Assembly (NCBI RefSeq): GCF_030013595.1
Contig: NZ_CP122768.1
Direction: 5' to 3' (one strand)
From: Escherichia coli
Lineage (GTDB): Bacteria > Pseudomonadota > Gammaproteobacteria > Enterobacterales > Enterobacteriaceae
Length of the DNA stretch: 64,000 nucleotides
In this document: one piece after another, positions 28,193 through 64,000 of the stretch
Layout of the letters: the number at the start of each line of letters is the position of its first letter
How positions within the stretch are numbered: the first letter of the stretch is position 1
Program-made: the position numbers and the translations under genes
Notes under the pieces: generated by a model
What the model saw: the letters and a program-made list of their open reading frames with translations, nothing else
Told to the model about the DNA's origin: nothing
Database searches by the model: none

Positions 28193-28198
28193 GATTAT

Positions 28199-28233
28199 AA
28201 GCGCATGTTATTGTTTAACATGCGCTTTTTTAT
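28199..28233 (+). terminator. Hairpin terminator immediately after tRNA-Ser
   Basis: aagcgcatgtta...taacatgcgctt inverted repeat followed by T6. Confidence 0.65.
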
Positions 28234-28341
28234 TTATCCTTCCGGACAGTATGCCATCGGGTATGCCATCTGAAACCGGTTTATATGCCCCGCGATCATA
28301 TCTTATCGGACAATTTCCGATCTTTGAGCATACTGGCAAAG

Positions 28342-29184
28342 CTATACTGCCAGCATGTCAGGATAGTGTTTTGCGATAATATCATTCAGTCTGTCAACCA
28401 GTTCTGGTTTCCTGAACGTGATGTGTGCGGAGCCCTTCTTAAAGTATCTGATGCTGAACATCTCATCTTCATAGCTCTCTTTACCCTGAACAGACTGAAT
28501 GTGATCATCCAGACGAAGGGTGATGTTTCCCCGGTTGTCGGGGATTGGTTTGCCGCTGAACAGGTGCAGCATTCTTTCCAGGTCGGCAAGTCGATCTGCC
28601 TGTTGCCCGCTGTTCAGATGAAATCCCCACCGGTCCCATCTCACCAGATTGTTGACGATAATTTTATTACCAAATTTACAGGGGGAGTTGGTTTTGTAAT
28701 TCCAGCTCAACCCTCTGAAGACGTTGATCACCCCTCGCTCAAACACCTCATCCTTATTCTGGTGCAGTTGTTCAAATGTGCTCAGGATGTTCGCTTCGCT
28801 GATTTCCGGAAAATTATCGTACTCCAGTGACCGGTACCATGTATCACGGGCCTGCGCATCCATTAATGACAGCATCCCGGAACGTTGCATCAGGTCACGC
28901 CAGATTTCTCGATCGAGATTGCGGGTGATGGCTTTCATTGCTGCTTCCGGTTTTTCCATCAGCCAGCAGCCACAGCGAAAATCCTGTTTCATCGCCCAGT
29001 CCAGTGCGGTTTTACCGCCAATACTTTCTGTCATTGCTGAGATTTCAGCCAGTTGCCGGATAAGTGTGTCGATTTGCAGCAGCGTACTCTTTCGTACAGT
29101 CAGAATGTGGCGGATACTGGTTGAGCAGATAACGTCCGTATGCCCGTTGACCACTTCCGGACGGGAGGCTGTGATATCAGACAT
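28342..29184 (-). CDS. Island-associated hypothetical protein (280 aa), last gene of the toxin-antitoxin-distal module
   Basis: Long ORF with good coding look; no recognisable motif by eye. Confidence 0.5.
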   Translation of the reverse strand: MSDITASRPEVVNGHTDVICSTSIRHILTVRKSTLLQIDTLIRQLAEISAMTESIGGKTALDWAMKQDFRCGCWLMEKPEAAMKAITRNLDREIWRDLMQRSGMLSLMDAQARDTWYRSLEYDNFPEISEANILSTFEQLHQNKDEVFERGVINVFRGLSWNYKTNSPCKFGNKIIVNNLVRWDRWGFHLNSGQQADRLADLERMLHLFSGKPIPDNRGNITLRLDDHIQSVQGKESYEDEMFSIRYFKKGSAHITFRKPELVDRLNDIIAKHYPDMLAV

Positions 29185-29268
29185 AATCGATATTCCTTTT
29201 TGCAGATAAATGAAAACGCCAGCCCTGTTCAGGCTGGCGTCAGTGGAATGAAGTCTGGTGAGTAAGAC

Positions 29269-29466
29269 TCACTGGTTCTGTTGCAGAAACTGCAACTGGC
29301 GCAGGGTACGGATATCCTCCCTGGCCTGTTCAATGCAGGGCAGCAGTGCTGCCGAATCCGTTTTATCCTCATCGTTGTCAAAGATAATTCCCGATTCGCA
29401 GTCGATATTGTCCTGTAGCCACGCAATCAGAATATCCAGTGCGGTTTCCGTGGTTAATGATTTCAT
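29269..29466 (-). CDS. Small hypothetical protein (start may be 29511)
   Basis: ORF MKSLTTETALDILIAWLQDNIDCESGIIFDNDEDK...; overlaps stop of upstream gene. Confidence 0.35.
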   Translation of the reverse strand: MKSLTTETALDILIAWLQDNIDCESGIIFDNDEDKTDSAALLPCIEQAREDIRTLRQLQFLQQNQ

Positions 29467-29477
29467 GTTGTTCCTGG

Positions 29478-29966
29478 TTACCAGTCGAAAGTGGGCAGGT
29501 CCGGCAGACATTCAGCGCTGGCATCCAGATGAATGAGACTGACGCCATAACGTTGGATGAGTGTGACAACCAGACGACGGAACGTTTTTGACAGCCCCAG
29601 GCGCTTGAGCCGCAGAACCGGATATGACCACGCATCGGTACGTAACAGATATCCGCTACCTGTGAAATGAATCCATTCTGATTCACCGAAGTCACTGGTC
29701 TGGTGTGACAGCGAGTACAGCCAGGCGTTATCCTTTTCCGTGATATGTGCGGTACTGCAGCGTATGCCGGCAAGGGTTGCAAACGGTGGTAGTGTGCAGG
29801 TTGACTGTTGGTCGGATTCCTCCACCACGCGGAGTGAATAACCGTTTTCAGCGACCTTGTTAATCAGTTCAGTGAGATTAACACCATCGACGTCAGCGAC
29901 AATTCGCCCCATGTTCAGTGCCTGCACGTTAATGCTGTCGGCTTCCAGCGTCAGGGCCAGTTTCAT
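29478..29966 (-). CDS. Hypothetical protein immediately downstream of CbtA toxin (YeeW-position gene)
   Basis: 162-aa ORF, start overlaps cbtA stop by 4 bp (ATGA), indicating coupling. Confidence 0.45.
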   Translation of the reverse strand: MKLALTLEADSINVQALNMGRIVADVDGVNLTELINKVAENGYSLRVVEESDQQSTCTLPPFATLAGIRCSTAHITEKDNAWLYSLSHQTSDFGESEWIHFTGSGYLLRTDAWSYPVLRLKRLGLSKTFRRLVVTLIQRYGVSLIHLDASAECLPDLPTFDW

Positions 29967-30340
29967 TGTTTCGCCCCCGGATGTTTACCCAAGGTAATGT
30001 TATTTACCGTTCTGTAATTGTCGCGGGTCATCAGGCCTGTCGCCCGGCGGGCCCGGAGGATATCGATGCTGTTTATTAACTGAGAGTGGGTACAGGCGCT
30101 GAATCCCGGCTGGTCGGTACGCACCAGTGCGTATTTTTCCACGAGAAAGTTCACCGCATCACACAGTGAAATGCCAGCTTCAATATGCTGCTCAATCACA
30201 CGTTCATCGGCAAACGGTGTGTCATTCAGTGTGAGGCCGTAGTGCTGGTCCAGCAGTCGGGACAGCAGTATCTGCCAGATTTCAACAGGAGACGGGCGAG
30301 AACTGGCCGCCTGCCCGGGTAATACAGGTAATGTTTTCAT
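29963..30340 (-). CDS. cbtA: CbtA/YeeV/YkfI/YpjF-family toxin (type IV TA, cytoskeleton-binding)
   Basis: MKTLPVLPGQAASSRPSPVEIWQILLSRLLDQHYGLTLNDTPFADERVIEQHIEAGISLCDAVNFLVEKYALVRTD... near-identical to remembered K-12 YeeV. Confidence 0.8.
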   Translation of the reverse strand: MKTLPVLPGQAASSRPSPVEIWQILLSRLLDQHYGLTLNDTPFADERVIEQHIEAGISLCDAVNFLVEKYALVRTDQPGFSACTHSQLINSIDILRARRATGLMTRDNYRTVNNITLGKHPGAKQ

Positions 30341-30428
30341 ACTGAAGATTTTCCTGATATGCAGATATAAAAATGGGAAAGTGGCGTGGTGAAAACACCA
30401 GGCCGTAGCAGAAGGCTATTCTGGAGAG

Positions 30429-30797
30429 TTAATTTTTCATTTTGGGCGTCGGATAAACAGCCAGATAAACGTAACCACAACTGCTGAGGGTATCGGCTTT
30501 GCAGGTCAGCCCTCTGGCATACAGCGTGACGGTATGCTGATGGCGGGGATTCAGTTCACCGCTGGTGAGCATGAGCTCCAGTTGTTTCATCAGCAGCGGA
30601 AGGGCCTGGTCCAGGTGGTACGCATCCGCGTCGCTGAACCGGCCTCTGATACCGGCACGGTCGGCAAGGTAATGCAACCGGTTACCCTCCTGCACCAGAC
30701 GTGCCCCAAAACAGGGCGTCACGGTGCAGGGTAGCCCCCACCAGGGGCGGTCGTTGTTATCGTCGGGATAATTTGTTTCATGGAGTGAGTCTGACAC
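30429..30797 (-). CDS. cbeA: CbeA/YeeU/YafW/YfjZ-family antitoxin (GTG start with AAGGA RBS; ORF-track start at 30905 is over-extension)
   Basis: ...PDDNNDRPWWGLPCTVTPCFGARLVQEGNRLHYLADRAGIRGRFSDADAYHLDQALPLLMKQLELMLTSGELNPRHQHTVTLYARGLTCKADTL... Confidence 0.8.
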   Translation of the reverse strand: MSDSLHETNYPDDNNDRPWWGLPCTVTPCFGARLVQEGNRLHYLADRAGIRGRFSDADAYHLDQALPLLMKQLELMLTSGELNPRHQHTVTLYARGLTCKADTLSSCGYVYLAVYPTPKMKN

Positions 30798-30846
30798 GAT
30801 AAAATCCTTACAGAAAATCGGTGAATGATAGTTTAACGATGACGAG

Positions 30847-31494
30847 TCAGCCGGCGCGCAGACCGGCTTCGGTGAAGGTGTATTCGTTGATGAGAAGGGC
30901 CTCATCCACAGCGGCGTCTGAGGTCAGCCAGTCGTACTCGTTTTCCAGTTGACGGTACAACCAGAAGGCCAGGTCGCGCAGGGCTTCGCTGACTGCGGCT
31001 TCCGCATCGGTTGTCATAGCCTGACCAGTCGGACTGTTCCGGGTGACGGTGATATCCATGCTGTACGGATGGCAGTAACGTCCCCTGTGACTGATTTCAG
31101 CCTGCAACTGCCAGAAGTTACGTTTCTGCACCGCCTGCAGGGCATCCGTGATACGATGAAGCTCACGGTCCTGCGGGGCATATTCCCTGATTTTCCGGGG
31201 TGCCGCTGGCTGCCAGTGCCAGCGCCCTTCAAAACAGGCTCCGTCCCCCTGGCTGCAGAATCCGCTGAACCAGATGCACGGCTCTTCCATAAACCTGCCG
31301 TTGCTGAGCCGGAAAACGCGCTGGCGGAGGCTAATCCCGAAAATGTTACAGACCTCCCTGAAGTCTTCATACACGTTTTCATACCAGTTGCTGTTAGCAT
31401 GATACTGACGGTACCAGTCGCGGGCTTTTTCCCGTGCAGCAGGGCAGGAAAGTTCATCCAGCGTATACACAGTGGTGGTGATAATGCTGCTCAT
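30847..31494 (-). CDS. Hypothetical 215-aa protein inserted between yeeT-like and cbeA
   Basis: Clean ORF MSSIITTTVYTLDELSCPAAREKARDWYRQYHANSNWYENVYEDF...; not part of the canonical yeeS-yeeT-yeeU-yeeV order as I remember it. Confidence 0.5.
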   Translation of the reverse strand: MSSIITTTVYTLDELSCPAAREKARDWYRQYHANSNWYENVYEDFREVCNIFGISLRQRVFRLSNGRFMEEPCIWFSGFCSQGDGACFEGRWHWQPAAPRKIREYAPQDRELHRITDALQAVQKRNFWQLQAEISHRGRYCHPYSMDITVTRNSPTGQAMTTDAEAAVSEALRDLAFWLYRQLENEYDWLTSDAAVDEALLINEYTFTEAGLRAG

Positions 31495-31512
31495 CAGAAT
31501 CCCCTTTCTGAT

Positions 31513-31734
31513 TCAGTTCAGGGTGACGCTCATCAGCCGGACATACGGGCCAAAACTGTCCTTACGGCGTTCTGCAAACACAGCCAGCACACCGGGAATA
31601 TCCTGCACTTCACGACCGGTATACGCCTCAGCACTGCCGTGCCAGCGGTACTTACCGGTGCAGAACGGAAAAAGACGGGATGCCGGATGCTGACGGTGAA
31701 TGCGCATGGCTTCACCACGGGTGATAATTTTCAT
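31513..31734 (-). CDS. YeeT/YkfH/YpjJ-family protein (DUF987)
   Basis: 73 aa MKIITRGEAMRIHRQHPASRLFPFCTGKYRWHGSAEAYTGREVQDIPGVLAVFAERRKDS... Confidence 0.7.
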   Translation of the reverse strand: MKIITRGEAMRIHRQHPASRLFPFCTGKYRWHGSAEAYTGREVQDIPGVLAVFAERRKDSFGPYVRLMSVTLN

Positions 31735-31802
31735 AATGGGATACCTCTGAAGACAGAAGATAAAAGTGAAAACAGGTGTGATGTGGTTGTGACGGTGACG
31801 GG

Positions 31803-32294
31803 TTAAAGCAGACCGTGTTCGGCAAAGGAGAATACCTGGCTGCCACCGACTATCAGATGGTCCGGCACCCGGATATCCACCAGGCCCAGTGCCTGTACCA
31901 GACGTTCCGTGATAAGGCGGTCTGCCTTGCTGGGTGTGACTTCACCGGACGGGTGATTGTGTGCCAGTACCACAGCAGCGGCATTGTGATACAGGGCGCG
32001 TTTAATCACTTCCCGGGGATGGACTTCCGTGCGGTTGATGGTGCCGGTGAAGAGGGTTTCACCGGCAATCAACTGATTCTGGTTGTTCAGATACAGTACC
32101 CGGAACTCTTCCCGCTCCAGTCCTGCCATGTTCAGAATCAGCCATTCCCGTGCCGCATGCGTGGAGGTGAAGGCCACACCGGGTTCATGAAGATGGCGGT
32201 CCAGGGTTTTCAGGGCCCGCTGAATGAGGCTGCGCTCACCGGGCGTCATCTCTCCGGGCAGAAAGGAAAGCTGTTGCATTGTGCTTCTCTCCAT
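31803..32294 (-). CDS. RadC-like JAB/MPN-domain protein (YeeS/YkfG/YfjY family); start possibly at 32279
   Basis: JAMM motif HNHPSGE, ...LITERLVQALGLVDIRVPDHLIVGG... Confidence 0.8.
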   Translation of the reverse strand: MERSTMQQLSFLPGEMTPGERSLIQRALKTLDRHLHEPGVAFTSTHAAREWLILNMAGLEREEFRVLYLNNQNQLIAGETLFTGTINRTEVHPREVIKRALYHNAAAVVLAHNHPSGEVTPSKADRLITERLVQALGLVDIRVPDHLIVGGSQVFSFAEHGLL

Positions 32295-32780
32295 TCAGTC
32301 GATGATGCGCATAATGGCGCTGCATTCCGGATGCTGCAGGGCATAATCCCGCAGCCGGTAATAATGGACCGTCATGGCATAACACTCCGTACGACAGGCA
32401 TGATGACTGTACGTCATCAGACAGGCAGCAATGCCGGCGGCTTCCGGGCTCATTTCAGCGCGGTTACCGTTCATGACATTGAACAGTACCCATGTTTCGT
32501 CATCATCGTCATCCGGTTCGGGGGCCATAAATGCCCCGCCGTTGTTCAGGGTGTACAGATTCCAGATACCACCGCAGTAGTCTTCACACAGACGGTCCAT
32601 CCAGCCGAAGACACGGGGCTCCAGGGTCACCCACTGTGGAATAAGGCCAAAATGTTGCGGCCAGAAGCTGATGCGCTGTTCATCAGGGACGAGAGTAGCA
32701 ACCAGCTGAGGTGGGTTATTCCCTGATGCAGCGGTTACGGAAACAGAAGGTGTGGTGGAATTATGCGTAACGGTTGTCAT
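32295..32780 (-). CDS. Antirestriction protein (KlcA/ArdB-like; YafX/YfjX family)
   Basis: 161 aa with acidic stretch PEPDDDDDETW and conserved position next to radC-like gene. Confidence 0.7.
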   Translation of the reverse strand: MTTVTHNSTTPSVSVTAASGNNPPQLVATLVPDEQRISFWPQHFGLIPQWVTLEPRVFGWMDRLCEDYCGGIWNLYTLNNGGAFMAPEPDDDDDETWVLFNVMNGNRAEMSPEAAGIAACLMTYSHHACRTECYAMTVHYYRLRDYALQHPECSAIMRIID

Positions 32781-32871
32781 GAGATTATTCCTTATAAAAA
32801 GTAAATGAATGGAAGAATGTCCGGAGGCAGGGACGGAAGTGAGTCAGGACTGCGCTTTCAGGGAAAAGGCA

Positions 32872-33690
32872 TCAGCGCATGCTCTCCAGCAGCGTTTCTG
32901 CCATCACCCACAATGCGCGATTGAGCTTAATGTCGGTGTCGATGCTGTGAATGGCCCGGGTGTGGATACGTTTTCCTCTGGCACTGCGACCGGAAATTCC
33001 GCCTTTCAGCATATTCTCCTGGATGGTCTGATATGCGCTCCACAGGTCCTTGCCGTAATCCTCCCTGCGTCGTGGTGTCAGAATGTCAGCAGTGGTGACG
33101 GGCTGATGTTCGTCACCATAACGGTAAGTCAGTGCCGCCTGCGCCAGTGCCTGGCGTGCCGGTGGCGGCAGGACCAGCGACTGCATGGCATCACGTTTCT
33201 CCTCAATCCGGTCAAACACGCCCACCACTTCGTAAGCCCCTTCAATAACTTTCTCCACCACGTTTCCCCGGTGCGGAACACGCACTTCCCCCAGAGACTG
33301 ACCACAGACGCAGCCGTTCTGGCAGACGAATCTGAAGTAACCCGGCAGCATCTGGTAGCTGGAGGTACCGTCATGGGAGTTGAGCAGAATAATTTCAGGG
33401 ACATGTTGTCCGGTTATCTCCCCGTCACGCCGCAGACGCAGCATGTGTTTTGTGTATTCCCGGCGACCCGGGTCACGCACACGTGTCTGGCAGGCGAAGA
33501 ATGGCTGAAAGCCTTCCCGCTGCAGACTTTCCAGTACGGTGATGGTGGGAATGTACGCATAGCGTTCACTGCGGGAGGTATGCCGGTCTTCTCCAAAAAT
33601 ACTGGGAACATAGTGCATCAGCTCTTCATGTGTCAGTGGACGTTCACGGCGTATCTGGTTTGTATAACCAAAACGACTGGCTAATCGCAT
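32872..33690 (-). CDS. DUF932-family protein (YafZ/YfjQ-like)
   Basis: 272 aa; family assignment from remembered similarity to CP4 prophage proteins. Confidence 0.65.
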   Translation of the reverse strand: MRLASRFGYTNQIRRERPLTHEELMHYVPSIFGEDRHTSRSERYAYIPTITVLESLQREGFQPFFACQTRVRDPGRREYTKHMLRLRRDGEITGQHVPEIILLNSHDGTSSYQMLPGYFRFVCQNGCVCGQSLGEVRVPHRGNVVEKVIEGAYEVVGVFDRIEEKRDAMQSLVLPPPARQALAQAALTYRYGDEHQPVTTADILTPRRREDYGKDLWSAYQTIQENMLKGGISGRSARGKRIHTRAIHSIDTDIKLNRALWVMAETLLESMR

Positions 33691-34100
33691 AATTGCTCCT
33701 TATGAATGATTAAGCGGTATAAATGAAAAAACCGCGTCTCCCGGAGAAGACGCGGCCTGATGGGTGAAATGAATGAGGTTTATTGTCCGGGAAGCCCTTC
33801 ACTGGTGAGCCACGCATTAAGTTGTTTGCCTGCATAGGGTTCAGAATTCCGGCAGCGCCAGCGTCGCTGACCTTCCGCGTTGCGGATAATCCGCCGGAAA
33901 TGCATTCCTGGATAAACACATTGCGGTAAGCTGTTATGACAGCAACTGTCTGTTTGCGTGAGAAAGGATCTTCGGAAAATAAAAGTAATGTACAGCCCGT
34001 CATGTATTTTCAGGTAAAAATAAAGCCCCTGCCATTATGGCAGAGGATTTATTTACATTTGATATTAATAACGCGCAGATAAGATACTATAATTCATACA

Positions 34101-34514
34101 TTAAATTTTGATTTCGTCAAGCCCGACAATCTTATGAATCGTATTGTCGTAAAGTTTAACGCCCGGTTTACCGTTTTTTAGGGTAACGAAACCGGCGGTG
34201 ATGTTGCCTTCACAACTTTGATTGTTGTTGTATTTGATGGTCTGGGCTTTACCGGTATAGAAATTAATTACGCCGTATAAACCATCCCAGCACGCTGTAC
34301 CCCCCATGGCGTGTACCAGACCGTATTGCATGTCTTTGGATGTGCCCAGGTATTCACAACCTCCGTCGATAGTATCAGTACCCTGACACCAGAATTCTGT
34401 ACCGTCAGTAACGTCAGTCAGGTTGGTCGGTAAAGGAACGGCATTGTTTGCTGATACATTAGCAGTAAAGAAACTGATAACTGCAATCATTAAAATAGTG
34501 ATGATATTTTTCAT
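34101..34514 (-). CDS. Small secreted cysteine-containing protein (signal peptide), function unknown
   Basis: MKNIITILMIAVISFFTANVSA signal, 4 Cys in mature part, terminator hairpin downstream (34021..34050). Confidence 0.5.
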   Translation of the reverse strand: MKNIITILMIAVISFFTANVSANNAVPLPTNLTDVTDGTEFWCQGTDTIDGGCEYLGTSKDMQYGLVHAMGGTACWDGLYGVINFYTGKAQTIKYNNNQSCEGNITAGFVTLKNGKPGVKLYDNTIHKIVGLDEIKI

Positions 34515-34783
34515 GATAAATACTCCATTGTTTCTGATGTTAAATAAAAGTATAAAAACTGTTTCTGCAATACTTATAATCCACTCGAGAGGTCAGGATT
34601 AACCCCCGACTTGTTTATTAAACACATACCTGAAGATATGACCTTCAACATGGTGATATATTTATACTATGTTTCTGACTGTCTCCTGAATCAAATAAAA
34701 TATATCCGTTCCATGATGAACATCATTTACCTGTTAAGAACACTAATAACCTGATTATTTAGCAAACTCTGCGAGAAAGAATA

Positions 34784-35323
34784 TCAGATCGTAAATAACA
34801 CCAGTATCAGCATAACCAGCCAGACCCAGAAATAAGCAGGTTTTTGCCCGAGGATCTTTGCCCGACGCCACAGATAAACCGGGATCAGCCATGCCAGCCA
34901 GCCAAATGCTGTGGTATCAACACCAGATTTACGGAGTTTTCGTTCATCCAGATATCCCAGAGCAATATTCAGAATCAGAGAGATAAACCAGTACTGGCCT
35001 TCGCTGACTGCATCATAAGCCCGTTCAAATGACATACCGTTCAGCCCGGCAGTCCACATCTCAAGTATGTACCCAATCAAAGGGGCAAATGCCAGCGTCC
35101 AGACAACGTCTCCGGGAATGCGGTGACCCGGAAGGGCCGGAGGAACTTCACTTTGTTTCAGTATTTCCGCCAGTGATGTGGCTGAAACTGGCTGCCATTC
35201 CAGCATGCCCTGTTGCCACACCAGTGTTGATGCATTCAGTTCACCACGCCGGATACGTTCGATAATATCTTCCTCTGTTACGTTATCATAACGTACACCA
35301 TTTTTTTCATAATGCCAGTTCAT
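34784..35323 (-). CDS. Membrane protein with soluble N-terminal domain, function unknown
   Basis: 179 aa, hydrophilic N-terminus (MNWHYEKNGVRYDNVTEEDIIERIRRGEL...) then 3-4 hydrophobic segments. Confidence 0.5.
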   Translation of the reverse strand: MNWHYEKNGVRYDNVTEEDIIERIRRGELNASTLVWQQGMLEWQPVSATSLAEILKQSEVPPALPGHRIPGDVVWTLAFAPLIGYILEMWTAGLNGMSFERAYDAVSEGQYWFISLILNIALGYLDERKLRKSGVDTTAFGWLAWLIPVYLWRRAKILGQKPAYFWVWLVMLILVLFTI

Positions 35324-35439
35324 CTGATTCTCCTGTTAATCATTCAGTTAATAAAACATGTGACATCCAAAACAAAAATATTTTTATGATATTCATTTTC
35401 ACTCACTGTATTAAATTAAACTGAGGTGTTTTACACCAC

Positions 35440-35905
35440 GTTATCAATTATTCCTGGAACCAGGTGTTCCAGCAGCTACCGTAGAATTTGTTACCCAAAG
35501 TCTTTTTCTCATTTTTGATATTTGCGGTATAGCTGTCGACTTTCTTACCGTTTACTAAAACGTCGAGCTTCGTGGCTTCACCGATAGCATCGATAAAGTA
35601 TACCCACGCATTCTTATTCATTCGTGTTCCGTCGACAGGTGGGGCCGAATACTTTTTACCGTTGATGATAAAAATAATATCAGAATCGTACTGATTTAGC
35701 GGGGTGGGGGTATGACCGTAAATCCACTCATATGTGGTAGCAAATTGTTGTCTTCTGGATTAATCGTGCAGTTAATAGAAACACTACCGACACTGAACAT
35801 ATCGGTGCCAGCAACACTGTTACGCTTCTACAATGCCGATTCTGCTTGTGCTACGGTTGTACTTACAGTTAAAACAACAGCTAAAAGAATGTTTAACAGT
35901 TTCAT
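35440..35905 (-). pseudogene. Disrupted gene for a small secreted protein (in-frame TAG after residue 25, then frameshift at G5TG5 tract)
   Basis: ATG at 35905 gives MKLLNILLAVVLTVSTTVAQAESAL*; downstream frames continue ...SVGSVSINCTINPEDNNLLPHMSGF... and ...YDSDIIFIINGKKYSAPPVDGTRMNKNAWVYFIDAIGEATKLDVLVNGKKVDSYT...SCWNTWFQE*. Confidence 0.35.
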
Positions 35906-36036
35906 GAGATTTCTCCCCAAAATTAAATAAATTAATCTTAACCATCATCCGGGTAATATATATCTGAAAATATTTTCAATAACACCAGATAAGAAAAACA
36001 CCACCACAGTGGCGGTGGCGTTTCTCCGGTGTGTCT

Positions 36037-40393: not shown

Positions 40394-40500
40394 TCACCTT
40401 TATAAATTCAATAATTCAGAACTGCGGTGAACAGCAATGAGCGTCCTTTCCCATTACTGCATGAATTTTCCTGAAATCGTATTTCCGGGATACCGTATAA

Positions 40501-52245: not shown

Positions 52246-52745
52246 TTTCCTGGCTTTATGTCGAATAATTCTGTTTATACATTCAGGCAAACTTCATTAA
52301 TAACTCACCGCTTTGGGGATAAATAATAACAACAAAAATCTTCAGATATTAACCTGGTTGTTGGATTTGTTATCACATCCTTTATCCACCTGCTTCTTAC
52401 TGGTAACACACCTGGAAAATCCATGCATTTTCAACATATACTATCCTTTCAACTTGTAAATAAGAAAATATGATGCAGATGGTGAACAATTCAAATATCA
52501 TTTTGCAGGAAGTATTCACTGTAATAGAATTACCCCCTGATAAAGTTTATTCACTAAGGAATTATTCAACAGAAACATTCCCTGTTAGCTTTGAGCAATA
52601 GCACTTATTTTTATATGTATCAGGAATACGTACGTTGATGTAACCAAAACAAAGAAGCCTGTGTCCATGGGGTTCGTACAATTGTGTGTGGCACATGACC
52701 AAATCAGGTTTGAGACCTCCCGCTGCAATATTTTTTATTCAGATT

Positions 52746-55427: not shown

Positions 55428-55667
55428 ATTCTTACTCAGAAATTATCATTTAACTTACGGAAAATTGTTAAGGCACTCCCGATATTAGCTCCGGAGGATT
55501 TTCCACAACTCCGGGACTGTTAACATATTTCTGCCTGCCATATATACATTGAATTTAGTCATAACAGTCAATACCAGAATTACAGGAATGCGATGCCGAT
55601 ACGCTGGTTATTGAATACTGGTAGCCCCTGAGCACTAATTCATCACGATACTCTGTATTTACTGTTT

Positions 55668-56801
55668 TCACTGCTTTTTACAACCATTCCCCCAGGTAAA
55701 ATGCTGCTCCTCCGGTGATGGCTGTGTCAGAAACTGCCATCCCGGAATAGCCACGCTGACCGCCAGCAATGCCGCACAGACACCAGCCACAAACGGTTTC
55801 AGAAACGTGGGCGGGGATTTCTGAAGGGAGGGTGACTGCTCCGCCTGCACTTTCCCCTTGCGATTATCAAGGCTCAGTGCATCCAGACGCACCGCGCCAT
55901 TTGCCGCAAGCAGCCCTTCCCGGTTATCCACGCTTCCCGGCAGACTCAGCGAAAAATCCCCTGTTCCCGTCTGAATCAGACTGCCTTTACGATTTGACAG
56001 GCTTTGTGCCGATATCTGCAGTGTGTCGGCATTTATCGTACCGCCATTACTGCTGAACTGCCCGGCAGTCCGGGCGGAAAGCGTATCGGCACTCAGTTGC
56101 GCATTCTGTGTAGACAGATTTCCACTGGTTGCATTCAGCTCAGTATGTTGTCCCTGTATCCGGCTGTTACCTAAATCCAGCCCCTGCTCAATGTCCCGTA
56201 AATCCAGCAGAGAACCTTCGTGTGCCGGGAATGAGGAATACAACTGAATATAGTCATCACTGTCCGGTGTCAGACGCACATGTCGCACAACACCGGGAAT
56301 AATAACCAGCCGGAGGATACCGCTTTTTAAATCCTGCGAAGGTGCCAGAACACGGGTGGTGACATAACCATGATCGACCAGACGGTTCTGCAATGTACTC
56401 ATCAGCAGATTAATTCCTTTCGCCCCCAGGCAATGCCCGACCGCCCCGTTGGCGATTTTTTGTAAAGGCAGCCAGTGTGGTAACGCATCAGCCCCCTTCA
56501 GTTCCGTCTGTTTAATCTGAAAACAGGGCGTTTCAACAGGAAAATTAATCTTATGGGCAAAAGAGCCAGGTGCAGAAAGGCGAACATCAGGGGCTGAAGG
56601 CGTCAGTTGTTGCTCAAGGGCTTCCTGACGCTGCTGCTGAATGATAAATGCTTCATCTCCGCTACGCCGGACATCCGCTGCCTGAAGAGATAAAGGCGAT
56701 AATAAAGCAGACATCAGTGTCAGTGACAGCAAGGACGGACAGCGCCGGAATAAGCTTTGTTCCTCAGTCCTCTCGTTCCTGCAACATAATTTTCCAGTCA
56801 A
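55668..56801 (-). pseudogene. Probable remnant of a two-partner-secretion locus: TpsB-like (ShlB/FhaC/CdiB) signal peptide and POTRA region fused to hemagglutinin-repeat-like sequence
   Basis: N-terminus ...[26 protein letters not shown]...[11 protein letters not shown]... then Ser/Asn/Gly-rich repeats ...[10 protein letters not shown]...; too short for an intact TpsB barrel. Confidence 0.35.
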
Positions 56802-57388
56802 ACGAAAAACCTTTTATTCATGTCATACCAACAATCACCAGCCTCCTGACGATACCTCCCACCATGTTTTGCGATGGCACGCTACCGCCCTTCCGGTATT
56901 TACCCGCATCAACCGGTACCAGAATGCTGAGTAACAAACCAGCTAGAATTGACTTAATTTTGATCATTATAGAATAATGATCTGAACTACAGCAACATGA
57001 CAGATTTATCGATCGATATAACACAAATGAACAGTTCTTTATTCTGACAAATATCGCAAAAACAGCACATTACAAAATTTATAACCATAATTACTGGAAA
57101 AGTGCAGAAAATTATTCCACTGAATGCTTTTAATACAGTTGGTTAGCTTAAAAAATAGCAATTTTTGATTTCAGTCATTGAAAGTTGCAATGTTTGACGA
57201 TTCAACAGCATTTAAGTGAGTTTCAGGATATGGGAAGGACATGAAAGGAGGAGCGCAATAAAATACACAGGAAGAAGGGGAAAATGTTTCGTAAAAACAG
57301 AAAATTAACAGCGCACATCAGGAAACGCAGTCTCCTGATTCAGTGCTACCACATGAAAATTTAGTTAACTGTTACCGTACTAAAATTT

Positions 57389-57580
57389 ATGTCAGAAGAT
57401 GTTCCATTACCGAAAGTCAATCAGCGATACAAAGACGATCATGGTGCGCTTGTCACCCTGACCAGTGTTGAGGAAACCCGGGTGGTGTTTATGCAGGACG
57501 GCTATCCGCATCCCTGCATGCGACCGATGTACAACTTTCTGGGAAAATTCAAACCCGAACCCCGGGAAGAAACAGAATAA
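57389..57580 (+). CDS. Small hypothetical protein
   Basis: 63-aa ORF in intergenic position; weak. Confidence 0.25.
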   Translation: MSEDVPLPKVNQRYKDDHGALVTLTSVEETRVVFMQDGYPHPCMRPMYNFLGKFKPEPREETE

Positions 57581-57632
57581 AACGAAATCCCTGCCGGCAA
57601 TCACACTACCTGATAGCAGCATAATCCACTTA

Positions 57633-57941
57633 TTAATTCTCATCCCCGGAGACAAGCCCAGAAAACCACTCCGGGTGTTCACTGTATGCCGTGTTCAGCG
57701 CATCCCTGGAAACGTTTATATAAAAGCTGTCCTGCAATTTGCGGGTAACAACTTCTGCCAGGCGATTCCGGTTATCCACCAGTCCGGCATAACCTCTCTC
57801 TGCCAGCCACTCATTCAGTTCATGTTCCAGAGACAGATTGATAATATCATAATCGGACCTTGCCATTCCCGTTTCCTTAGCACATGTTTTCAGGCACGGG
57901 GATAAAGTATAAAGAATGTCATACTGCTGCTGCCAGAGCAA
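57633..57941 (-). CDS. Small hypothetical protein (true start may be internal ATG at MARSDYDIINL...)
   Basis: ORF co-oriented with adjacent YfjJ-like pseudogene. Confidence 0.3.
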   Translation of the reverse strand: MLWQQQYDILYTLSPCLKTCAKETGMARSDYDIINLSLEHELNEWLAERGYAGLVDNRNRLAEVVTRKLQDSFYINVSRDALNTAYSEHPEWFSGLVSGDEN

Positions 57942-57961
57942 TATTCCCCCTGATGGTTGTA

Positions 57962-59183
57962 TCAGAGATGGTATGCCGGTACTTTGCGGGTTGTTCCCGT
58001 CAGGTTATCGTGCACCTCCACGGTCGTGGTCACCACCGGCATTCCGGCCTTTCTCAGCCTCAGAACATCAGCCGCAATACGCTGACTGCCAAACCAGAAC
58101 AGGCCGTCCAGTGCAGTCACCAGTAAACCCGCCTCCAGTGCATACTTCAGCCGTTCACGGGGCGCTTTCACTTCCCGGGCAACCTGCTGATATGGCAATG
58201 ATGTGTTTTCATTCCCAACCACGCGACGAATACGGTGAGACAGATGATACCGGTATGTATCCGGCACACCAGAAAGGCTGGCCTTCAGGCTGTACACGCA
58301 GCCAAACCGTTTATCGTTAAACACCTCATTTTTCTGGCTGATGCCCCATTCTTCACGCAGCGCGGCAATCAATTGCGGTGTACGGGTAAGCAGCAAGCGA
58401 AAAGGCAGTTCAAAACTGGTGACGTAATCCACATTCAGCAGTGCAATACGCAACCGTTCTTCTGGCCCGGCCTCTGTCTGCCGGCACTCCTCCAGAACAT
58501 CCTGCCACTGCCGGCGAAGACGGGGGGATTCGTTCCGTTCTGTAAAACAGTATTTATCCGCCAGATAGTCAATTCGTGTACGCATACTGAAAGGAATTCC
58601 GTATAAAGATTCAGCAGACAAAACTTTATCAGCCAGTAAAAATTAACGGAAGCATTGATATTCCTCCCGACAATCACCGGATGATTGTTGCAATAACCTG
58701 CGACATAAAGGACTGAACAGCCGTTTTTAACGCCACGTATTGCCCTGATGAACCAGGCCGGGCCACCCGAAAACATCTTTCCACCCGGCATTGTCCGCCA
58801 GCACTTATCACCGACCAGGTCTGTTGCAGTAAATCCACCAGTTGCGCACATTCTTCATCAGCCATGACGCCGACTCGCGGATGGCAAATACTCGTCTGGC
58901 TGAGCAGCAACAGACATCGTATCTGTGCTCCTTCATGTTGTTCCCGCAACCAGCGTAATACCACCGGCGCTGATGGGCTGACCGTGTGATTATGCTCCGT
59001 AATACGTTCGTGTACCCGTCGGTGAAAGGAACTACAAAATGTCTGAATCTGTTGACCATAGATTCCTTCTGCCGAATAGAGCGTGAAGTGAAATGCCAAC
59101 AGATTTGGCCAGTGGTCCACCGCCTGCTGAACAAAACGCCGGATTTCCCCCGGCTCTGAAATTAAGGCTTCGGTTATTTGCAC
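57962..59183 (-). pseudogene. Split YagK/YfjJ-like (inovirus Gp2-type) gene, two consecutive ORFs 58674..59183 and 57962..58621
   Basis: Two adjacent same-strand ORFs whose combined length matches an integrase-proximal prophage gene family; interruption near 58620..58675. Confidence 0.4.
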
Positions 59184-59628
59184 GAAATGTTCCTTTTCAA
59201 CCCCTGTTGAATTTTGTCAAGCCGGTGCAGACACAGTAAAGCGCGCATCAACACCTGAAAGGTACGATACAAACACAAGTTACAAACAATAAGAACGGAA
59301 GGACAATTAATCAGTGAGGAATAATAACTAAATTAACCAAAAGAATGTTACTGACAATACTACCAATACTTAAATAGCAATATATTAATTAATGTAAGAA
59401 CAGATGCCCGGTAGGACATATACACAATACATCCACAAACACACTCTTTTCATTAAATCAATCACCTGATTAAACCATGAAAGTGTGATGTAAGTCAAAA
59501 TTACTGATACTATCAATTGATAATGATTATCTCTATCATTATCGTGAAATTCGAGAATGAAAGGAGAAGTAGTCATTATAAGCCTTTTATAAATCGTCAT
59601 CATCATAGTAAAGTAGAACACTTTTTAT

Positions 59629-60099
59629 ATGAGTTACTATATGAAAATATACTGGACAAGAAAACGTATTCCTGAACTTTCAGCACTTCCACCTTCATTA
59701 AGAAAGAAAAATTTTACTGACGCATATAATGCAGCATCTTCTCATATCGAATACTGGATAGGTGCTGGCGTCTCATTTATCTCGATGATGATTTTATCCA
59801 GAGTATATGACTTTCTTTTACCCGCCCAAGATACTTTCCCGGGTGATATCATCAGAAGTTTATGTGTTGTGTGTCCATCCATATTAATCTGGTTTCAGTT
59901 TTCGGTATATGTCATGAGGAAATATTACAGACATATTCTGGTGCGAGGAAAAGAAACCGAAACCATTTCAGAAAGGTTGATACGTGAGGCTGATACACGA
60001 GAATATGAACTATGGCGTCCGGTCCGTCGCTTTTTCTCCATTGTTTTCCTCATTGTTCTATTAGGTTGCATTCATTCACTGATAACAACTATAAAATAA
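59629..60099 (+). CDS. Hypothetical membrane protein
   Basis: 156 aa with 2-3 hydrophobic segments; AT-rich low-confidence region. Confidence 0.3.
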   Translation: MSYYMKIYWTRKRIPELSALPPSLRKKNFTDAYNAASSHIEYWIGAGVSFISMMILSRVYDFLLPAQDTFPGDIIRSLCVVCPSILIWFQFSVYVMRKYYRHILVRGKETETISERLIREADTREYELWRPVRRFFSIVFLIVLLGCIHSLITTIK

Positions 60100-60336
60100 A
60101 AGTTATGGCTGTTCTGATACAGGAAAATAAACGTTCATTCTATGGTTACCTCTTCCTGTTATATAGAAGAATTTTAAACGACAAGTAAGGGAATATAAAT
60201 GAAAATAACAAAAAATAAAAATGCAACTATAAAAAACAGTCATCAGTCGGCTGCTTTTCAATGTTTACCTTATCATTTTCTGGTAATGCTGCCAACTTAC
60301 TGATTTAGTGTATGATGGTGATTTTAAGGTGCTTGC

Positions 60337-60612
60337 GTGGCTTCCATTTCCATCAGATGTCCTTCCTGCTCCGCTACTGAAGGCGTGGTGCGTAACGGCA
60401 AAAGCACTGCCGGACATCAGCGCTATCTCTGCTCTCATTGCCGTAAAACATGGCAACTACAGTTCACTTACACCGCCTCTCAGCCCGGTAAGCACCAGAA
60501 AATCATTGATATGGCCATGAATGGCGTCGGATGTCGCGCCAGTGCACGCATTATGGGCGTTGGCCTCAACACGGTTTTACGTCACTTAAAAAACTCAGGC
60601 CGCAGTCGGTAA
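60337..60612 (+). CDS. insA: IS1 InsA
   Basis: [91 protein letters not shown]. Confidence 0.9.
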
Positions 60613-61034
60613 CCTCGCGCATACAACCGGGCAGTGATGTGATTGTCTGCGCTGAAATGGACGAACAGTGGGGCTACGTCGGTGCTAAATCACGTCAGCG
60701 CTGGCTGTTTTACGCGTATGACAGGATACGGAGGACGGTTGTGGCGCACGTCTTCGGTGAACGCACTCTGGCCACACTGGAGCGTCTTCTGAGCCTGCTG
60801 TCGGCCTTTGAGGTCGTGGTATGGATGACGGATGGCTGGCCGCTGTATGAATCACGCCTGAAGGGAAAGCTGCACGTTATCAGCAAGCGTTACACTCAGC
60901 GCATTGAGCGACATAATCTGAATCTGAGACAACATCTGGCAAGGCTGGGACGGAAGTCACTGTCGTTCTCAAAATCGGTGGAGCTGCATGACAAGGTCAT
61001 CGGGCATTATCTGAACATAAAACACTATCAGTAA
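60531..61034 (+). CDS. insB: IS1 InsB (expressed as InsAB' by frameshift)
   Basis: ...[54 protein letters not shown]... Confidence 0.85.
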
Positions 61035-61035
61035 G

Positions 61036-61311
61036 TTGGAGTCATTACCTGAGAATAATACCTCCTGGGTAAGTGAGCAGATACTTTCAGCGCCTCCGAA
61101 AGATGTAAATATTCGACTTGGAGTCGGTTCTTTAGAAGGTACAACCGTCTCACATGTTCAGCGATTGCATCATTCGTTAATCGCAGCTGGTTTGGAAAGT
61201 AACCTCACTGTCTATACCGGTGGTCACGATTATGCCTGGTGGCGCGGAGCAATTATTGATGAATTAGCAAATTATAATTGCAGGAAGGTATCAAATAATA
61301 ACTCTGTGTAA
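61036..61311 (+). pseudogene. Possible C-terminal fragment of an esterase-family gene truncated by IS1
   Basis: ORF begins inside IS1 right end; tail ...LTVYTGGHDYAWWRGAIIDELAN resembles enterochelin-esterase-type C-termini (weak, from memory). Confidence 0.25.
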
Positions 61312-61452
61312 AATATCGTTTTATCGTCAGATAACTCTTTCTGCAATATTATTATGGGAGACTATCTCATTTATTTAGTGATGTCCTTCATTTATGTGAT
61401 GAAGGACATTATATTACTCATAACATTTCTCGTTGAAAATTTCAGCAATACG

Positions 61453-62577
61453 CTACAATTGTTTCCCGTTGTTTTTTAATTTTCTCATCAAAACCTCTGC
61501 AATCTCTGCAGGACTGGGTTGTTCAGCCATTTCAGCGGCTACCTGATCTGAACAGAAGCGTAGTGAATCATCATAAAGAAGGCGATTTACCAAATCACTG
61601 GTCAGTCCATGCTTGTCCGGAATAATCCCACACCCACGCTTCGCAACAATTTCTGCATTAACAGAGCGATCTGCACCTTCGCCAAACACAATCTGTGGTA
61701 TTCCACTATACAGCGCTGTCAGGGTATTACCTGCGCCACCGTGATGAATAAATCCATCAGCTCCATTAAGGAATACACCCATAGGTATCCAGTCAACCAG
61801 ACGTACATTTGATGGTAGTTTTCGTAAACCAGTACGAGCATTTATTGCAAGTTGCAAAATGATATCAGCATCAACTTCATTTGCAGAATCCATAACCCAT
61901 GAAATCAGCTCCAGACCATCAACCATTGGTTTTACAGTGCCAAGGCTGATAAGTAAACGTTTCCGATCAGAATCCCTGTCCCACCATGTTTCCTTTACAG
62001 CACCTCCGTTATAAGGAATATATCTCATTGAGATAACCGGTTCTCCAGCATTTTTAAGAATGCTCATACTTGGGGGAGCAACATCAATCCATGCTAAATC
62101 ACATAGTGGACCGCTGACTCCATGCCGCCTGTAAGCATTGCTTAAAGAACGGTTTAACATCTGAATATGGGCAGATGTATGCGCGAATCCAACAGCCAGC
62201 ATCACTGAAGGAATTCTATATTTAGCAGCAACCAATGGGCCTGCCGGATCAAGAGGGGGATAGACTATTAAATCTGGCCTCCATTTTCCTGCAAAATCGA
62301 TGAGGTTATCTGCCATTTCATCGCTAAAAAAAGAGAAATGACCAATAATATTACTTTTTTTCCTCAACTCTTCCTGATGGCGATATCCAGCCTCTGAATC
62401 TAAACCTGGAACTGCATCAAAAACAACCAGTCCAGCTTCTGCTGCTTTATTCGCGAATTTGCCAGCGCTACTAATTACTACATCATGTCCAATTACACGA
62501 AAGGCCTGAGCCAGAGAAATCAATGGGTATAACAAACCGTACAGCGGTGGGCCAATAAAAAGAATACGTTTTCGCAT
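61453..62577 (-). CDS. GT-B glycosyltransferase of the IroB/MchA (enterobactin C-glucosyltransferase) family
   Basis: MRKRILFIGPPLYGLLYPLISLAQAFRVIGHDVVISSAGKFANKAAEAGLVVFDAVPGLDSEAGYRH... closely resembles remembered IroB; C-terminal HHGGAGNT UDP-sugar motif. Confidence 0.65.
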   Translation of the reverse strand: MRKRILFIGPPLYGLLYPLISLAQAFRVIGHDVVISSAGKFANKAAEAGLVVFDAVPGLDSEAGYRHQEELRKKSNIIGHFSFFSDEMADNLIDFAGKWRPDLIVYPPLDPAGPLVAAKYRIPSVMLAVGFAHTSAHIQMLNRSLSNAYRRHGVSGPLCDLAWIDVAPPSMSILKNAGEPVISMRYIPYNGGAVKETWWDRDSDRKRLLISLGTVKPMVDGLELISWVMDSANEVDADIILQLAINARTGLRKLPSNVRLVDWIPMGVFLNGADGFIHHGGAGNTLTALYSGIPQIVFGEGADRSVNAEIVAKRGCGIIPDKHGLTSDLVNRLLYDDSLRFCSDQVAAEMAEQPSPAEIAEVLMRKLKNNGKQL

Positions 62578-63306
62578 TAAAAAAGTCCGTCTTCTGCTTA
62601 CCTGTTTATTTTTCTATCTCTAAGAAAACATAATTAATATTATTTTTATGTGAGCTTATGCACAAAAATAACCAAGTATATTATCTTCTGGTAGAGATTC
62701 AGGATACAGTTTGTAGGAGCTTTCTTTTTTGAACAATGATTTGCAGGACAGTTATGCTAAACTAGCGGAATCAGTATCACAACAATAAATGACTGATCAT
62801 ACCTGAAATTTGAATTAACAGGCATCATGAATGTCAATAGTCTAAGCGGTGACTACTTATATCGCTTGCATAAATACTAAACACTGACTAGAAAAGTATT
62901 GGATAACCCCGTCACTAAAAGTAACGCTTCGGTTATTTGCTCGGAATGTATTAACGCCAAGATTGTTAGCCGTTACGCCTTATATCACTGGCGCTGACAA
63001 ATGTTTCTTTTCTAATTTACTGAACCGGCGCAGACACGCAGGAAAGCACGCCGGCACCGGTGTAATGCCAGTTCTAATCAATAAGAATGGAATGACGAAT
63101 CAGTCAGGAAGGGATAACAACCCGCTGCTGAACGGAAGGTATCAGCAGGAAGATGAACGGGAATATCGCCAGCACCAAGGGCAGGGCCGGGTTCCACAAT
63201 ACCAGCGCTGGCATTTTGCACATTGCCAGCGTACCGGCATTACAACACGTTTCATGCTGCTGCCCCCCAGGATTCCTCGATTCGTTGCTACATCCACTGC
63301 TCTACT

Positions 63307-63504
63307 TCACTTCCACTGCTCCACTTCACTTTTGTACCAGCGGCTGCTGCGCCCCAGTTTGATGGGTTTAGGGAAATGGCCTTCACTGATCAACTTGTAA
63401 AACCATTTGTCGGTCATACCGGTGAAACTGGTGATATAGTTCATGTCGATCAGGGAATTATCGGCACGCAGAAATACGCTGTCGTGGCTTGTTGTAGTCA
63501 ACAT
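63307..63504 (-). CDS. AlpA-family prophage transcriptional regulator (MerR-like HTH)
   Basis: ...DMNYITSFTGMTDKWFYKLISEGHFPKPIKLGRSSRWYKSEVEQW... Confidence 0.6.
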   Translation of the reverse strand: MLTTTSHDSVFLRADNSLIDMNYITSFTGMTDKWFYKLISEGHFPKPIKLGRSSRWYKSEVEQWK

Positions 63505-64000
63505 GGTCAGAATGTCCTGTGAGATTTATGAAGATTGTGCGAATGCGGGAAATCTACTGAGCTGTGCTTTCAGAACTGGCCTGTTACGGGATACCAGGGA
63601 TTACCGGCGGGGTAACGGGCTTCCGGATCATACACACCACGATTATCGCGGACAAAATCACTGAACGCCCATATCACCTCTTTAAGTATGTCTTCGCAGT
63701 CCGGTAAATGACGATCCAGCGCCACATCCCGGGTGGTACAGCTTTGATGCGCCCGGTGACACAAAGCCCGGATTGTTCCAGACATCCTGAATCAAACGCC
63801 CCAGATTAGGGGCGTCGAAATATGCCTCTCTGACCATTATATTCCGGCGTATAGGTAGCAGGTCTGAAGTGACAATGCGTCACCTGACGTTAAAAGTCAC
63901 CCAAGATGACCCCAGTGGGGGCAACAAGTATAAAACCGTTTTTTGATTAAGTGGTCGGATATGAAAAGGGGAAGGTTTATGTGAAAAATACCTGTGTTTT

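Follow-up and report, generated by a model that had tools for sequence, protein, structure and literature searches.

Why should an island that borders a tRNA gene present its toxin-antitoxin end, and not an integrase, to that tRNA? The question is raised by a 64,000-nucleotide stretch of Escherichia coli contig NZ_CP122768.1 (the window), in whose right-hand part, from 28193 to 64000, an initial annotation noted an arrangement that it took to be the outcome of IS-mediated inversion, of fusion of several islands, or of an integrase lying just outside the window. Our analysis leads to a simpler reading, to which we assign a probability of about 0.93: the 36 kb seen in the window form the attL side of a single, intact integrative element of the SpLE1/O-island 43/48/TAI type that occupies the 3' end of serW.

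The serW junction and the 36 kb that follow it

The tRNA-Ser gene recognized by the initial annotation does stand at the island border, and the context upstream (cydD-cydC-aat-infA), together with comparison with K-12, identifies it as serW. The 14-bp core with which it ends, CCCCCTCACCGCCA, corresponds in reverse complement to the published direct repeat TGGCGGTGAGGGGG (PMC3064760) and is found once in the window at up to 2 mismatches; island DNA begins at 28193. Insertion in the 3' end of serW with TGGCGGTGAGGGGG at the junction is the arrangement of the SpLE1/OI-43/OI-48 site. In genomes with an empty site the match starts precisely at the first base of the core, and comparison with the empty site of K-12 shows that the native serW terminator has been displaced by a hairpin of the island, the native copy staying at the clpA end. 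Features of the junction and of the island backbone are as follows.

28105..28192, plus strand: serW, tRNA-Ser(GGA), the intact tRNA at the left junction, attL (ARAGORN)
28179..28192, plus strand: attL copy of the 14-bp core, or direct repeat, forming the final 14 bp of serW
28179..64000, backbone genes on the minus strand: part assigned to the serW-proximal 40% of an SpLE1/OI-43-type integrative island (collinearity with ETEC1716 and Sakai SpLE1)
28199..28237, plus strand: island-derived terminator-like hairpin and T-run (K-12 empty-site comparison)
28249..28269, plus strand: tandem GTATGCCAT x2 in 12-bp register, attL arm; putative arm-type integrase binding sites
28304..28313, plus strand: TATCGGACAA motif, unique in the window, recurring once in the attR arm
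28342..29184, minus strand: DUF4942 protein, with whose gene the CP4-like backbone ends (Pfam E=1.8e-69; PGAP)
29963..30797, minus strand: type IV toxin-antitoxin pair (PGAP annotation of identical DNA)
29963..30340, minus strand: CbtA toxin (PGAP)
30429..30797, minus strand: YeeU/CbeA-family antitoxin (PGAP)
31513..33690, minus strand: DUF987, JAB/RadC-like, antirestriction and DUF932 genes, homologues of YpjJ, LfgB, LfgA and YfjQ (tblastn, 66-74% identity; PGAP)
43722..44594, minus strand: YfjP/YeeP-like GTPase of the CP4 backbone (50% identity to YfjP; Pfam MMR_HSR1)

In ETEC1716 the tandem GTATGCCAT pair also stands upstream of int, at the other end of the island, and Sakai SpLE1 has it at either end; the two copies would be arm-type integrase sites, and TATCGGACAA may be bound by Int, by a directionality factor or by a host factor. 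That the tRNA-proximal end is a CP4-like toxin-antitoxin module, as initially described, is borne out by the run of minus-strand genes from DUF4942 to DUF932, which also includes DUF957 and DUF5983 genes between DUF4942 and cbtA. Toxin and antitoxin have 65% amino acid identity to YpjF and YfjZ of K-12, and the genes from DUF987 to DUF932 stand in CP4-57 order; tblastn extends this order over the minus strand at 50-74% identity, from the GTPase through DUF932, antirestriction, RadC/JAB, DUF987 and the CbeA-family antitoxin to the CbtA-family toxin.

Between and beyond these genes lie cargo and insertion sequences:

33836..35910, strand not given: insert of low GC content (about 40%) that Sakai SpLE1 does not have, coding for a GYF_2/DUF4339 protein and for small hypothetical proteins
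36037..40393, minus strand: operon of patatin-like phospholipase, YjcZ/RdcB-family protein and dynamin-family GTPase, homologues of ECs_1399-1397 (Pfam)
40501..43350, minus strand: cah, calcium-binding antigen-43-like autotransporter (PGAP; Sakai ECs_1396)
44736..47439, plus strand: complete IS66-family element (tnpA, tnpB, tnpC), simply inserted between collinear flanks and absent from Sakai SpLE1
47882..48722, strand not given: fragments of IS66 (ISEc23) and IS3 (IS1203) shared with Sakai SpLE1 (coordinates mapped from Sakai)
50042..52290, minus strand: PerC-family regulator (pchD-like), IbrB-like protein and IbrA, PAPS-reductase-like (Pfam)
52746..55427, minus strand: SF1 helicase (AAA_11/AAA_12) with C-terminal DUF2726 domain, intact; its Sakai counterpart ECs_1383 is a pseudogene
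60282..61049, plus strand: IS1 element, placed where Sakai SpLE1 has IS1F
63307..63504, minus strand: second, internal AlpA-like regulator, homologue of ECs_5414 (Pfam Phage_AlpA E=5.4e-10)

The IS66, the IS1 and the IS66/IS3 fragments reported at first are thus all present. The AlpA-like gene is real too, but it was said to point away from the tRNA; the ORF list places it on the minus strand, and it and its neighbours read toward serW. The YfjJ/YagK-like gene proposed at about 58 kb finds no support: Pfam, NCBIfam, tblastn and relaxed blastp gave no significant YagK/YfjJ homology for the ORFs of 57.9-59.2 kb. One of these, 57962..58621, belongs to the 'ECs1377 family'; the other, 58674..59183, has no family match in Pfam or NCBIfam. 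By eye, the latter shows two unproven resemblances, of 'LLAFHFTLY' to 'LIAVRVDLHY' and of 'LRWLREQ..IRCLLLL' to 'IIWAKEY..HYHICLLF'. PADLOC returned for the cargo genes just a generic helicase and weak LeoBC/BrxP-type matches, which have no bearing on polarity.

The absence of an integrase from 28193..64000 was correctly noted: when the whole window was searched by tblastn with the SpLE1-type integrase and with IntF, the best E was 0.4, and IntA had no match at E<=1e-3 in 28000-64000. PGAP annotation of the ETEC1716 stretch that is 99.9% identical to the window likewise contains DDE-transposase fragments and no integrase.

The far end of the island in porcine ETEC strains

The window stops at 64000, and the other end of the island is seen in close relatives. 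Among 5426 complete E. coli genomes, the one nearest to the window across the junction matches it at 99.4%. Porcine ETEC1716 aligns with window positions 26044-64000 in one collinear block at 99.9% identity, and over the island part just 9 differences are seen in 36 kb; by this measure the island hardly differs from the one in porcine ETEC strains. In ETEC1716 the island is 90.1 kb long; it starts at serW and ends with a P4-like integrase, after which the 14 bp of the serW 3' end (CCCCCTCACCGCCA) recur and clpA follows; in the nearest relatives, then, total length is about 90 kb. Beyond the stretch shared with the window come iha, ter, ure, IEE, YfjI, AlpA and finally the integrase, a protein of 400 aa whose domains are Arm-DNA-bind_3, Phage_int_M and Phage_integrase; it shares 99.75% identity with ECs_1299 of O157:H7 Sakai SpLE1. 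The core occurs exactly twice in ETEC1716, once per island end, the second copy lying between the integrase gene and clpA, and the DNA past it is identical to the downstream flank of serW in K-12. At both ends the att arms directly abut the core, and they are conserved. ETEC1747 has the same iha-ter-ure-IEE continuation, traced up to the YfjI gene, and in ETEC4090 this variant of the island is found at serX, its polarity unchanged.

From these relatives we infer that the integrase of the window's own genome would lie about 53 kb past the right edge, at the far end of the island. The suggestion of an integrase just beyond the window is thus right as to direction, by the relatives, but not as to distance: about 53 kb separate it from the edge, and it occupies the opposite end of a 90-kb element.

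The two ends can be followed through complete E. coli genomes. The serW-attL-DUF4942 junction is present in 281 of 5426 and the int-attR-clpA junction in 225 of the same 5426, so that serW junctions of this island occur in about 4-5%. The excess of attL over canonical attR implies variant or truncated integrase ends in some strains. The integrase itself is carried by roughly 600 genomes.

Known islands and the proposed geometry

The closest described element is SpLE1 of Sakai, inserted at serX; its equivalents are O-islands 43 (serW) and 48 (serX) in EDL933, as well as the tellurite resistance and adherence-conferring island (TAI). It is collinear with the entire 36 kb at 88-99.96% nucleotide identity: six collinear blocks span 28098-64000, with gene content and order as in SpLE1, and the gaps between them correspond to the low-GC insert, the IS66, divergent stretches of the toxin-antitoxin module and an IS629 confined to Sakai. 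The 14-bp core and att arms are the same, as is the polarity, with int by ycdU at the tRNA stub and the toxin-antitoxin module by intact serX. Unlike SpLE1, the island here is at serW, matching the island of the porcine ETEC strains; relative to SpLE1 it has the extra IS66 (44736-47439) and the 2-kb low-GC insert (33836-35910), lacks IS629, keeps intact the helicase gene that is a pseudogene in Sakai, and in its 5 kb nearest the toxin-antitoxin end shows 88-93% identity only.

Published work on OI-43/48 describes perfect 14-bp direct repeats, a P4-family int, and a serW/serX gene that is intact at one end and cryptic at the other; experiments are reported in which OI-43/48 and SpLE1 excise by site-specific recombination, completely so in the case of OI-43/48 (PMC3064760). 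Shigella flexneri 2a carries at serX the SRL pathogenicity island, in which these 14-bp direct repeats recur together with an int 99% identical at the nucleotide level (PMC3064760), and for which precise, Int-dependent excision is described (reviewed in PMC7545054); the cargo of that island differs, consisting of antibiotic resistance and fec genes, and the likeness is drawn here from these publications.

Two K-12 elements frame the question of polarity. CP4-57, at ssrA, has the same int-to-toxin backbone order as the 90-kb element, with no internal inversion, at identities of 35% (IntA), 52% (AlpA), 41% (YfjI), 50% (YfjP), 74% (YfjQ) and 65% (YpjF); it differs in that int adjoins the tRNA-like gene and the toxin-antitoxin pair is distal, its core being oriented oppositely relative to int. 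The CP4-57 trait of an integrase directly beside an intact tRNA or tmRNA is not seen here, none being found in 28193-64000 and that of the relatives being at the far end. CP4-6, at thrW, has the architecture of our island: the tRNA on the plus strand is followed by the minus-strand toxin-antitoxin pair ykfI/yafW, DUF987, RadC, DUF932 and the GTPase, while intF (minus strand) lies about 100 bp from the far end and so is integrase-distal. CP4-6 differs in tRNA and cargo, and its integrase is distantly related, a 54-aa stretch alone aligning at 30% identity. An integrase beside the tRNA, which the initial annotation took as the rule, is the commoner case, but CP4-6 (thrW-ykfI/yafW ... intF) departs from it; the general rule places int close to one of the two ends (PMC7192596). 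To call the polarity at serW atypical was accordingly a judgement and not an observation, this being the normal polarity of the SpLE1/OI-43 family.

A geometry that would account for the arrangement can be proposed. The backbone runs int - alpA - yfjI ... yfjP-like GTPase - cah - DUF932 - antirestriction - RadC - DUF987 - antitoxin - CbtA toxin - DUF4942, a CP4-57-like order interrupted by insertion sequences and by cargo such as IEE, ure, ter, iha and ibrAB. The P4-family tyrosine integrase would recombine the 14-bp core common to attP and the final 14 bp of serW or serX, and the circular attP junction would read int-side arm ...GGCGGTCCCCCTCACCGCCAGATTATAAGCGC... TA-side arm. The core in attP would be so oriented as to place the int-proximal arm beside the displaced tRNA stub (ser'W, adjoining clpA), and the toxin-antitoxin end would be joined to the intact tRNA, to which it would give a new terminator. 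No integrase would then be expected within 36 kb of serW, because the core orientation puts the int arm at the clpA-side stub.

Other histories considered, and what the island means

The toxin-antitoxin end could have been brought to serW if inversion through IS elements had turned round an island that once had its integrase next to the tRNA; IS66, IS1 and IS fragments are indeed in the region, and most tRNA-linked elements of K-12, such as CP4-57, have int beside the tRNA. We regard this as extremely improbable. Collinearity with ETEC1716 and Sakai SpLE1 is unbroken across the 36 kb, the IS66 and IS1 being simple insertions; the entire element reads from int to toxin on one strand, like CP4-57; conserved att arms abut the core directly at both ends; islands at serX share this polarity, as do those of hundreds of genomes; and the element excises precisely (PMC3064760). 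The island is syntenic and uninverted in ETEC1716, Sakai and ETEC1747, which therefore tells against the rearrangement that the initial annotation had suggested. Loss or rearrangement of the integrase end in the window's own genome, leaving an immobile remnant, has precedents: large internal deletions of OI-43/48 arise through IS recombination, and one of them took out the integrase end (PMC3064760); the attL junction, moreover, is found in about 20% more genomes than canonical attR. It is nevertheless a poor prospect for this strain, given that the island part differs at just 9 positions from that of ETEC1716, which keeps the full integrase end, and that ETEC1747 continues likewise as far as YfjI.

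Fusion is a claim about ancestry, compatible with a single unit today. It would make the part from the AlpA-like gene (63.3 kb) to the toxin-antitoxin pair what is left of a separate CP4-like island whose integrase and att site have disappeared, its partner being a ter/ure/iha island that supplied the sole integrase. Two AlpA-family genes in one element, at 63307..63504 of the window and at L002 37494..37790, hint at a composite history, as do mosaic GC content and the many IS scars. Against it, no internal core copy is found in the island at up to 2 mismatches bar one chance-like match inside ISEc8; tblastn with SpLE1-type Int, IntF and IntA over the window and the full 90-kb relative finds the terminal int alone; ARAGORN finds no tRNA or pseudo-tRNA within the relative's island; and the backbone is unduplicated (one YfjI, GTPase, DUF932 and toxin-antitoxin pair), as expected of a single backbone gaining cargo. 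We consider such a fusion unlikely, and as a cause of the polarity, the role first proposed for it, it finds no support, the CP4-57 int-to-toxin order being kept throughout the 90-kb element. Equally doubtful is a variant in which the 36 kb would be a once-independent CP4-like element carried, and possibly AlpA-regulated, by the integrase of the ter/ure half, with the conserved GTATGCCAT x2 and TATCGGACAA arm motifs setting the integrase-distal geometry.

The reading we prefer, a single intact SpLE1/OI-43-type element, concerns an island already known: the 14-bp repeats at its att sites, the position of its P4-family integrase away from the intact tRNA, and the fact that it excises were described between 2001 and 2011. 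Its lesson is one of annotation, that a missing integrase beside a tRNA does not imply a rearranged or dead island; the integrase sits by attP and may land at either terminus, and both ends of an island should therefore be inspected. Sequence divergence jumps exactly at serW. Of minor interest is the presence of an EHEC-type ter/ure/iha island, almost unchanged, in porcine ETEC-like backgrounds; at the level of sequence, its near-constancy and the step in divergence at serW are consistent with recent horizontal spread.

The serW junction and neighbouring genes

ARAGORN finds one tRNA gene in the window, tRNA-Ser(GGA), with focA-pflBA ... dmsABC-serS-rarA-lolA-ftsK-lrp-trxB-cydDC-aat-infA on its 5' side; the locus is E. 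coli serW, in the orientation opposite to the K-12 reading direction. K-12 has serW, then ~340 bp, then clpA; in the window, foreign DNA begins immediately 3' of serW.

Features of the serW island in the window
28105..28192, + strand: serW, tRNA-Ser(GGA)
28199-28237: island-supplied terminator-like hairpin with T-run, 7 bp 3' of serW
28249-28269: tandem GTATGCCAT pair, 12-bp register
28304-28313: single TATCGGACAA motif
33836-35910: low-GC (about 40%) 2-kb segment, missing from Sakai SpLE1
34784..35323: GYF_2/DUF4339 protein, in the low-GC segment
36037-40393, - strand: three-gene operon (patatin-like phospholipase, YjcZ/RdcB-family protein, dynamin-family GTPase)
about 44736-47439: IS66
about 47.9-48.7 kb: IS fragments
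52746-55427, - strand: SF1 helicase, 893 aa, C-terminal DUF2726 domain
about 60282-61049: IS1
63307..63504, - strand: AlpA-family ORF (Pfam E=5e-10)

The toxin-antitoxin (TA) end of the island is tRNA-proximal, as the initial annotation had it: on the minus strand the order from serW is DUF4942, DUF957, DUF5983, CbtA toxin, YeeU-family antitoxin, DUF987, JAB/RadC, antirestriction and DUF932. Its facts were mostly right, including the IS elements and the lack of an integrase in the 36 kb after the tRNA: tblastn of SpLE1-type integrase and IntF queries against the whole window gave a best E of 0.4, an IntA query had no match at E<=1e-3 in 28000-64000, and the PGAP annotation of the 99.9%-identical DNA of strain ETEC1716 contains only DDE-transposase fragments and no tyrosine recombinase. 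Two details were imprecise. The AlpA gene, said to point away from the tRNA, is real but is transcribed toward it, like the rest of the backbone; and the YfjJ/YagK label for ORFs near 58-59 kb finds no support from Pfam, NCBIfam or BLAST. One minus-strand ORF there (58674-59183, 169 aa, no family match) resembles by eye the blocks conserved among YagK/YfjJ/inovirus-Gp2 proteins, though it has no H-x-H motif; it could be a degenerate relative, and the resemblance may explain the label.

The low-GC segment also encodes small proteins without family match, and PADLOC gives the three-gene operon only a weak LeoBC-like match. The SF1 helicase gene is intact, whereas its Sakai counterpart, ECs_1383, is a pseudogene. 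The helicase core encoded by the intact gene scores against the PADLOC Mokosh MkoA/MkoC models at E=3e-43, and on this sequence evidence it may be a defence gene. A 1-base deletion relative to ETEC1716 at position 49503, in a hypothetical gene downstream of a PerC-like regulator, alters the C-terminus (ORF 49413..50021, as against a 645-nt gene in ETEC1716).

The complete island in ETEC1716 and its boundaries

Window positions 26044-64000 align with porcine ETEC1716 (NZ_CP122880.1) as a single collinear block at 99.9% identity. Beyond the part shared with the window, the ETEC1716 island carries iha, the ter and ure operons, IEE (the IS-excision enhancer, an AEP primase-helicase), a YfjI-family protein, an AlpA homologue and, as terminal gene, a P4-family integrase of 400 aa that combines the domains Arm-DNA-bind_3, Phage_int_M and Phage_integrase; ETEC1747 has the same continuation up to the YfjI gene. 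By ETEC1716 coordinates the integrase gene would start ~52.9 kb past position 64000: the suggestion of an integrase just beyond the window was correct as to the side, judged by ETEC1716, but short by some 53 kb.

The last 14 bp of serW, CCCCCTCACCGCCA, recur in ETEC1716 between the int start and clpA; everything from this second copy onward, the native terminator included, is identical to what lies downstream of serW in K-12. At the clpA end that terminator stays beside the 14-bp stub, and the hairpin of the TA-side arm replaces it at serW. Across the 100 kb examined the 14-mer is confined to the two island ends, and in empty-site genomes the match begins precisely at its first base. From repeat to repeat the element measures 90.1 kb, of which the window holds the first 35.8 kb.

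Both att arms contain the GTATGCCAT pair and TATCGGACAA, on the same strand and unique to the arms; in the ETEC1716 stretch with the integrase end they lie at 42130-42150 and 42185-42194. They are identical in Sakai SpLE1, where the genes alongside reach only about 92% identity. These motifs are candidates for arm-type sites of Int or for accessory-factor sites; the integrase would bind arm-type sites through its N-terminal arm-binding domain.

The island is an ordinary, well-described one, already known because it matches SpLE1 (at serX in O157:H7 Sakai) and because the repeats, integrase and excision of its relatives OI-43 (serW) and OI-48 (serX) have been published. ECs_1299, the SpLE1 integrase, and the integrase of ETEC1716 share 99.75% identity. 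Along the serX-proximal part of SpLE1 the window aligns collinearly, at 88-99.96% identity, differing in its IS66 and 2-kb low-GC insertions, in the absence of one Sakai IS629 and in a more divergent TA-proximal end. OI-43 and OI-48 are bounded by perfect 14-bp repeats, TGGCGGTGAGGGGG, the reverse complement of CCCCCTCACCGCCA; their P4-family integrase and the one encoded by the Shigella SRL PAI share 99% identity, intact and cryptic serW/serX lie at opposite island ends, and complete excision via site-specific recombination is reported (Bielaszewska et al. 2011, PMC3064760).

Polarity of the island

Read from the clpA side, the island runs Int (35% identity to IntA), AlpA (52%), YfjI (41%), cargo, YfjP-like GTPase (50%), cah, DUF932 (74%), antirestriction (67%), RadC (71%), DUF987 (66%), antitoxin (65%) and toxin (65%). 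All lie on one strand, no segment is inverted, and the order is that of the K-12 cryptic prophage CP4-57; the only difference from CP4-57 is how, in attP, the tRNA-derived core is oriented with respect to int. In the serW island the arm next to int meets the displaced tRNA stub, and the arm next to the TA genes meets the intact tRNA. The same layout is seen in CP4-6 (thrW followed by ykfI/yafW, and intF some 100 bp from the opposite boundary), in the curated annotation of Sakai SpLE1 (integrase at the ycdU end, TA and DUF4942 genes adjoining serX) and in ETEC4090, where the same island variant sits at serX with its TA end again adjoining an intact tRNA. The rule formulated by the Williams group places int close to one end of the element, which need not be the tRNA-proximal end (PMC7192596). 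The polarity, which had been called atypical, is not anomalous.

The IS-mediated inversion proposed to account for it is contradicted by the collinearity with relatives, by arms that are intact and by the same arrangement at two different tRNA genes; the island is syntenic and uninverted in ETEC1716 (serW) and Sakai (serX), a result that the initial annotation had itself named as refuting its rearrangement hypothesis. That two CP4-like elements fused long ago is possible as history, in keeping with a second AlpA gene and the mosaic composition, but the element shows neither a leftover att site in its interior nor traces of another integrase, and none of its backbone modules is duplicated. The window's own strain is unlikely to have lost its integrase end, as the 36 kb differ at only 9 positions from ETEC1716, whose island is complete.

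Distribution and possible transfer

Among 5426 complete E. coli genomes, 281 have the infA-serW-attL-DUF4942 junction and 225 the int-attR-clpA junction; in about 56, the integrase may be a variant allele or its end of the island truncated. In 592 of the 5426 this integrase occurs together with its arm and core, at either serW or serX. In ETEC4090 (NZ_CP122620.1 3166000-3194000) the TA end adjoins serX/ghrA, past which come phage genes and a truncated ycdX, and an int-attR-clpA junction lies about 349 kb from this end, a layout that suggests either a second copy of the island or a large rearrangement.

To the left of serW, 2 kb of core genome (26111-28031, about 1.4% divergence) hold 28 of the 37 mismatches between the window and ETEC1716; there are none in 28032-43368 and 9 differences in the entire island part. 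Divergence steps at the tRNA, and the same island therefore lies in different chromosomal backgrounds, a pattern consistent with recent horizontal transfer.
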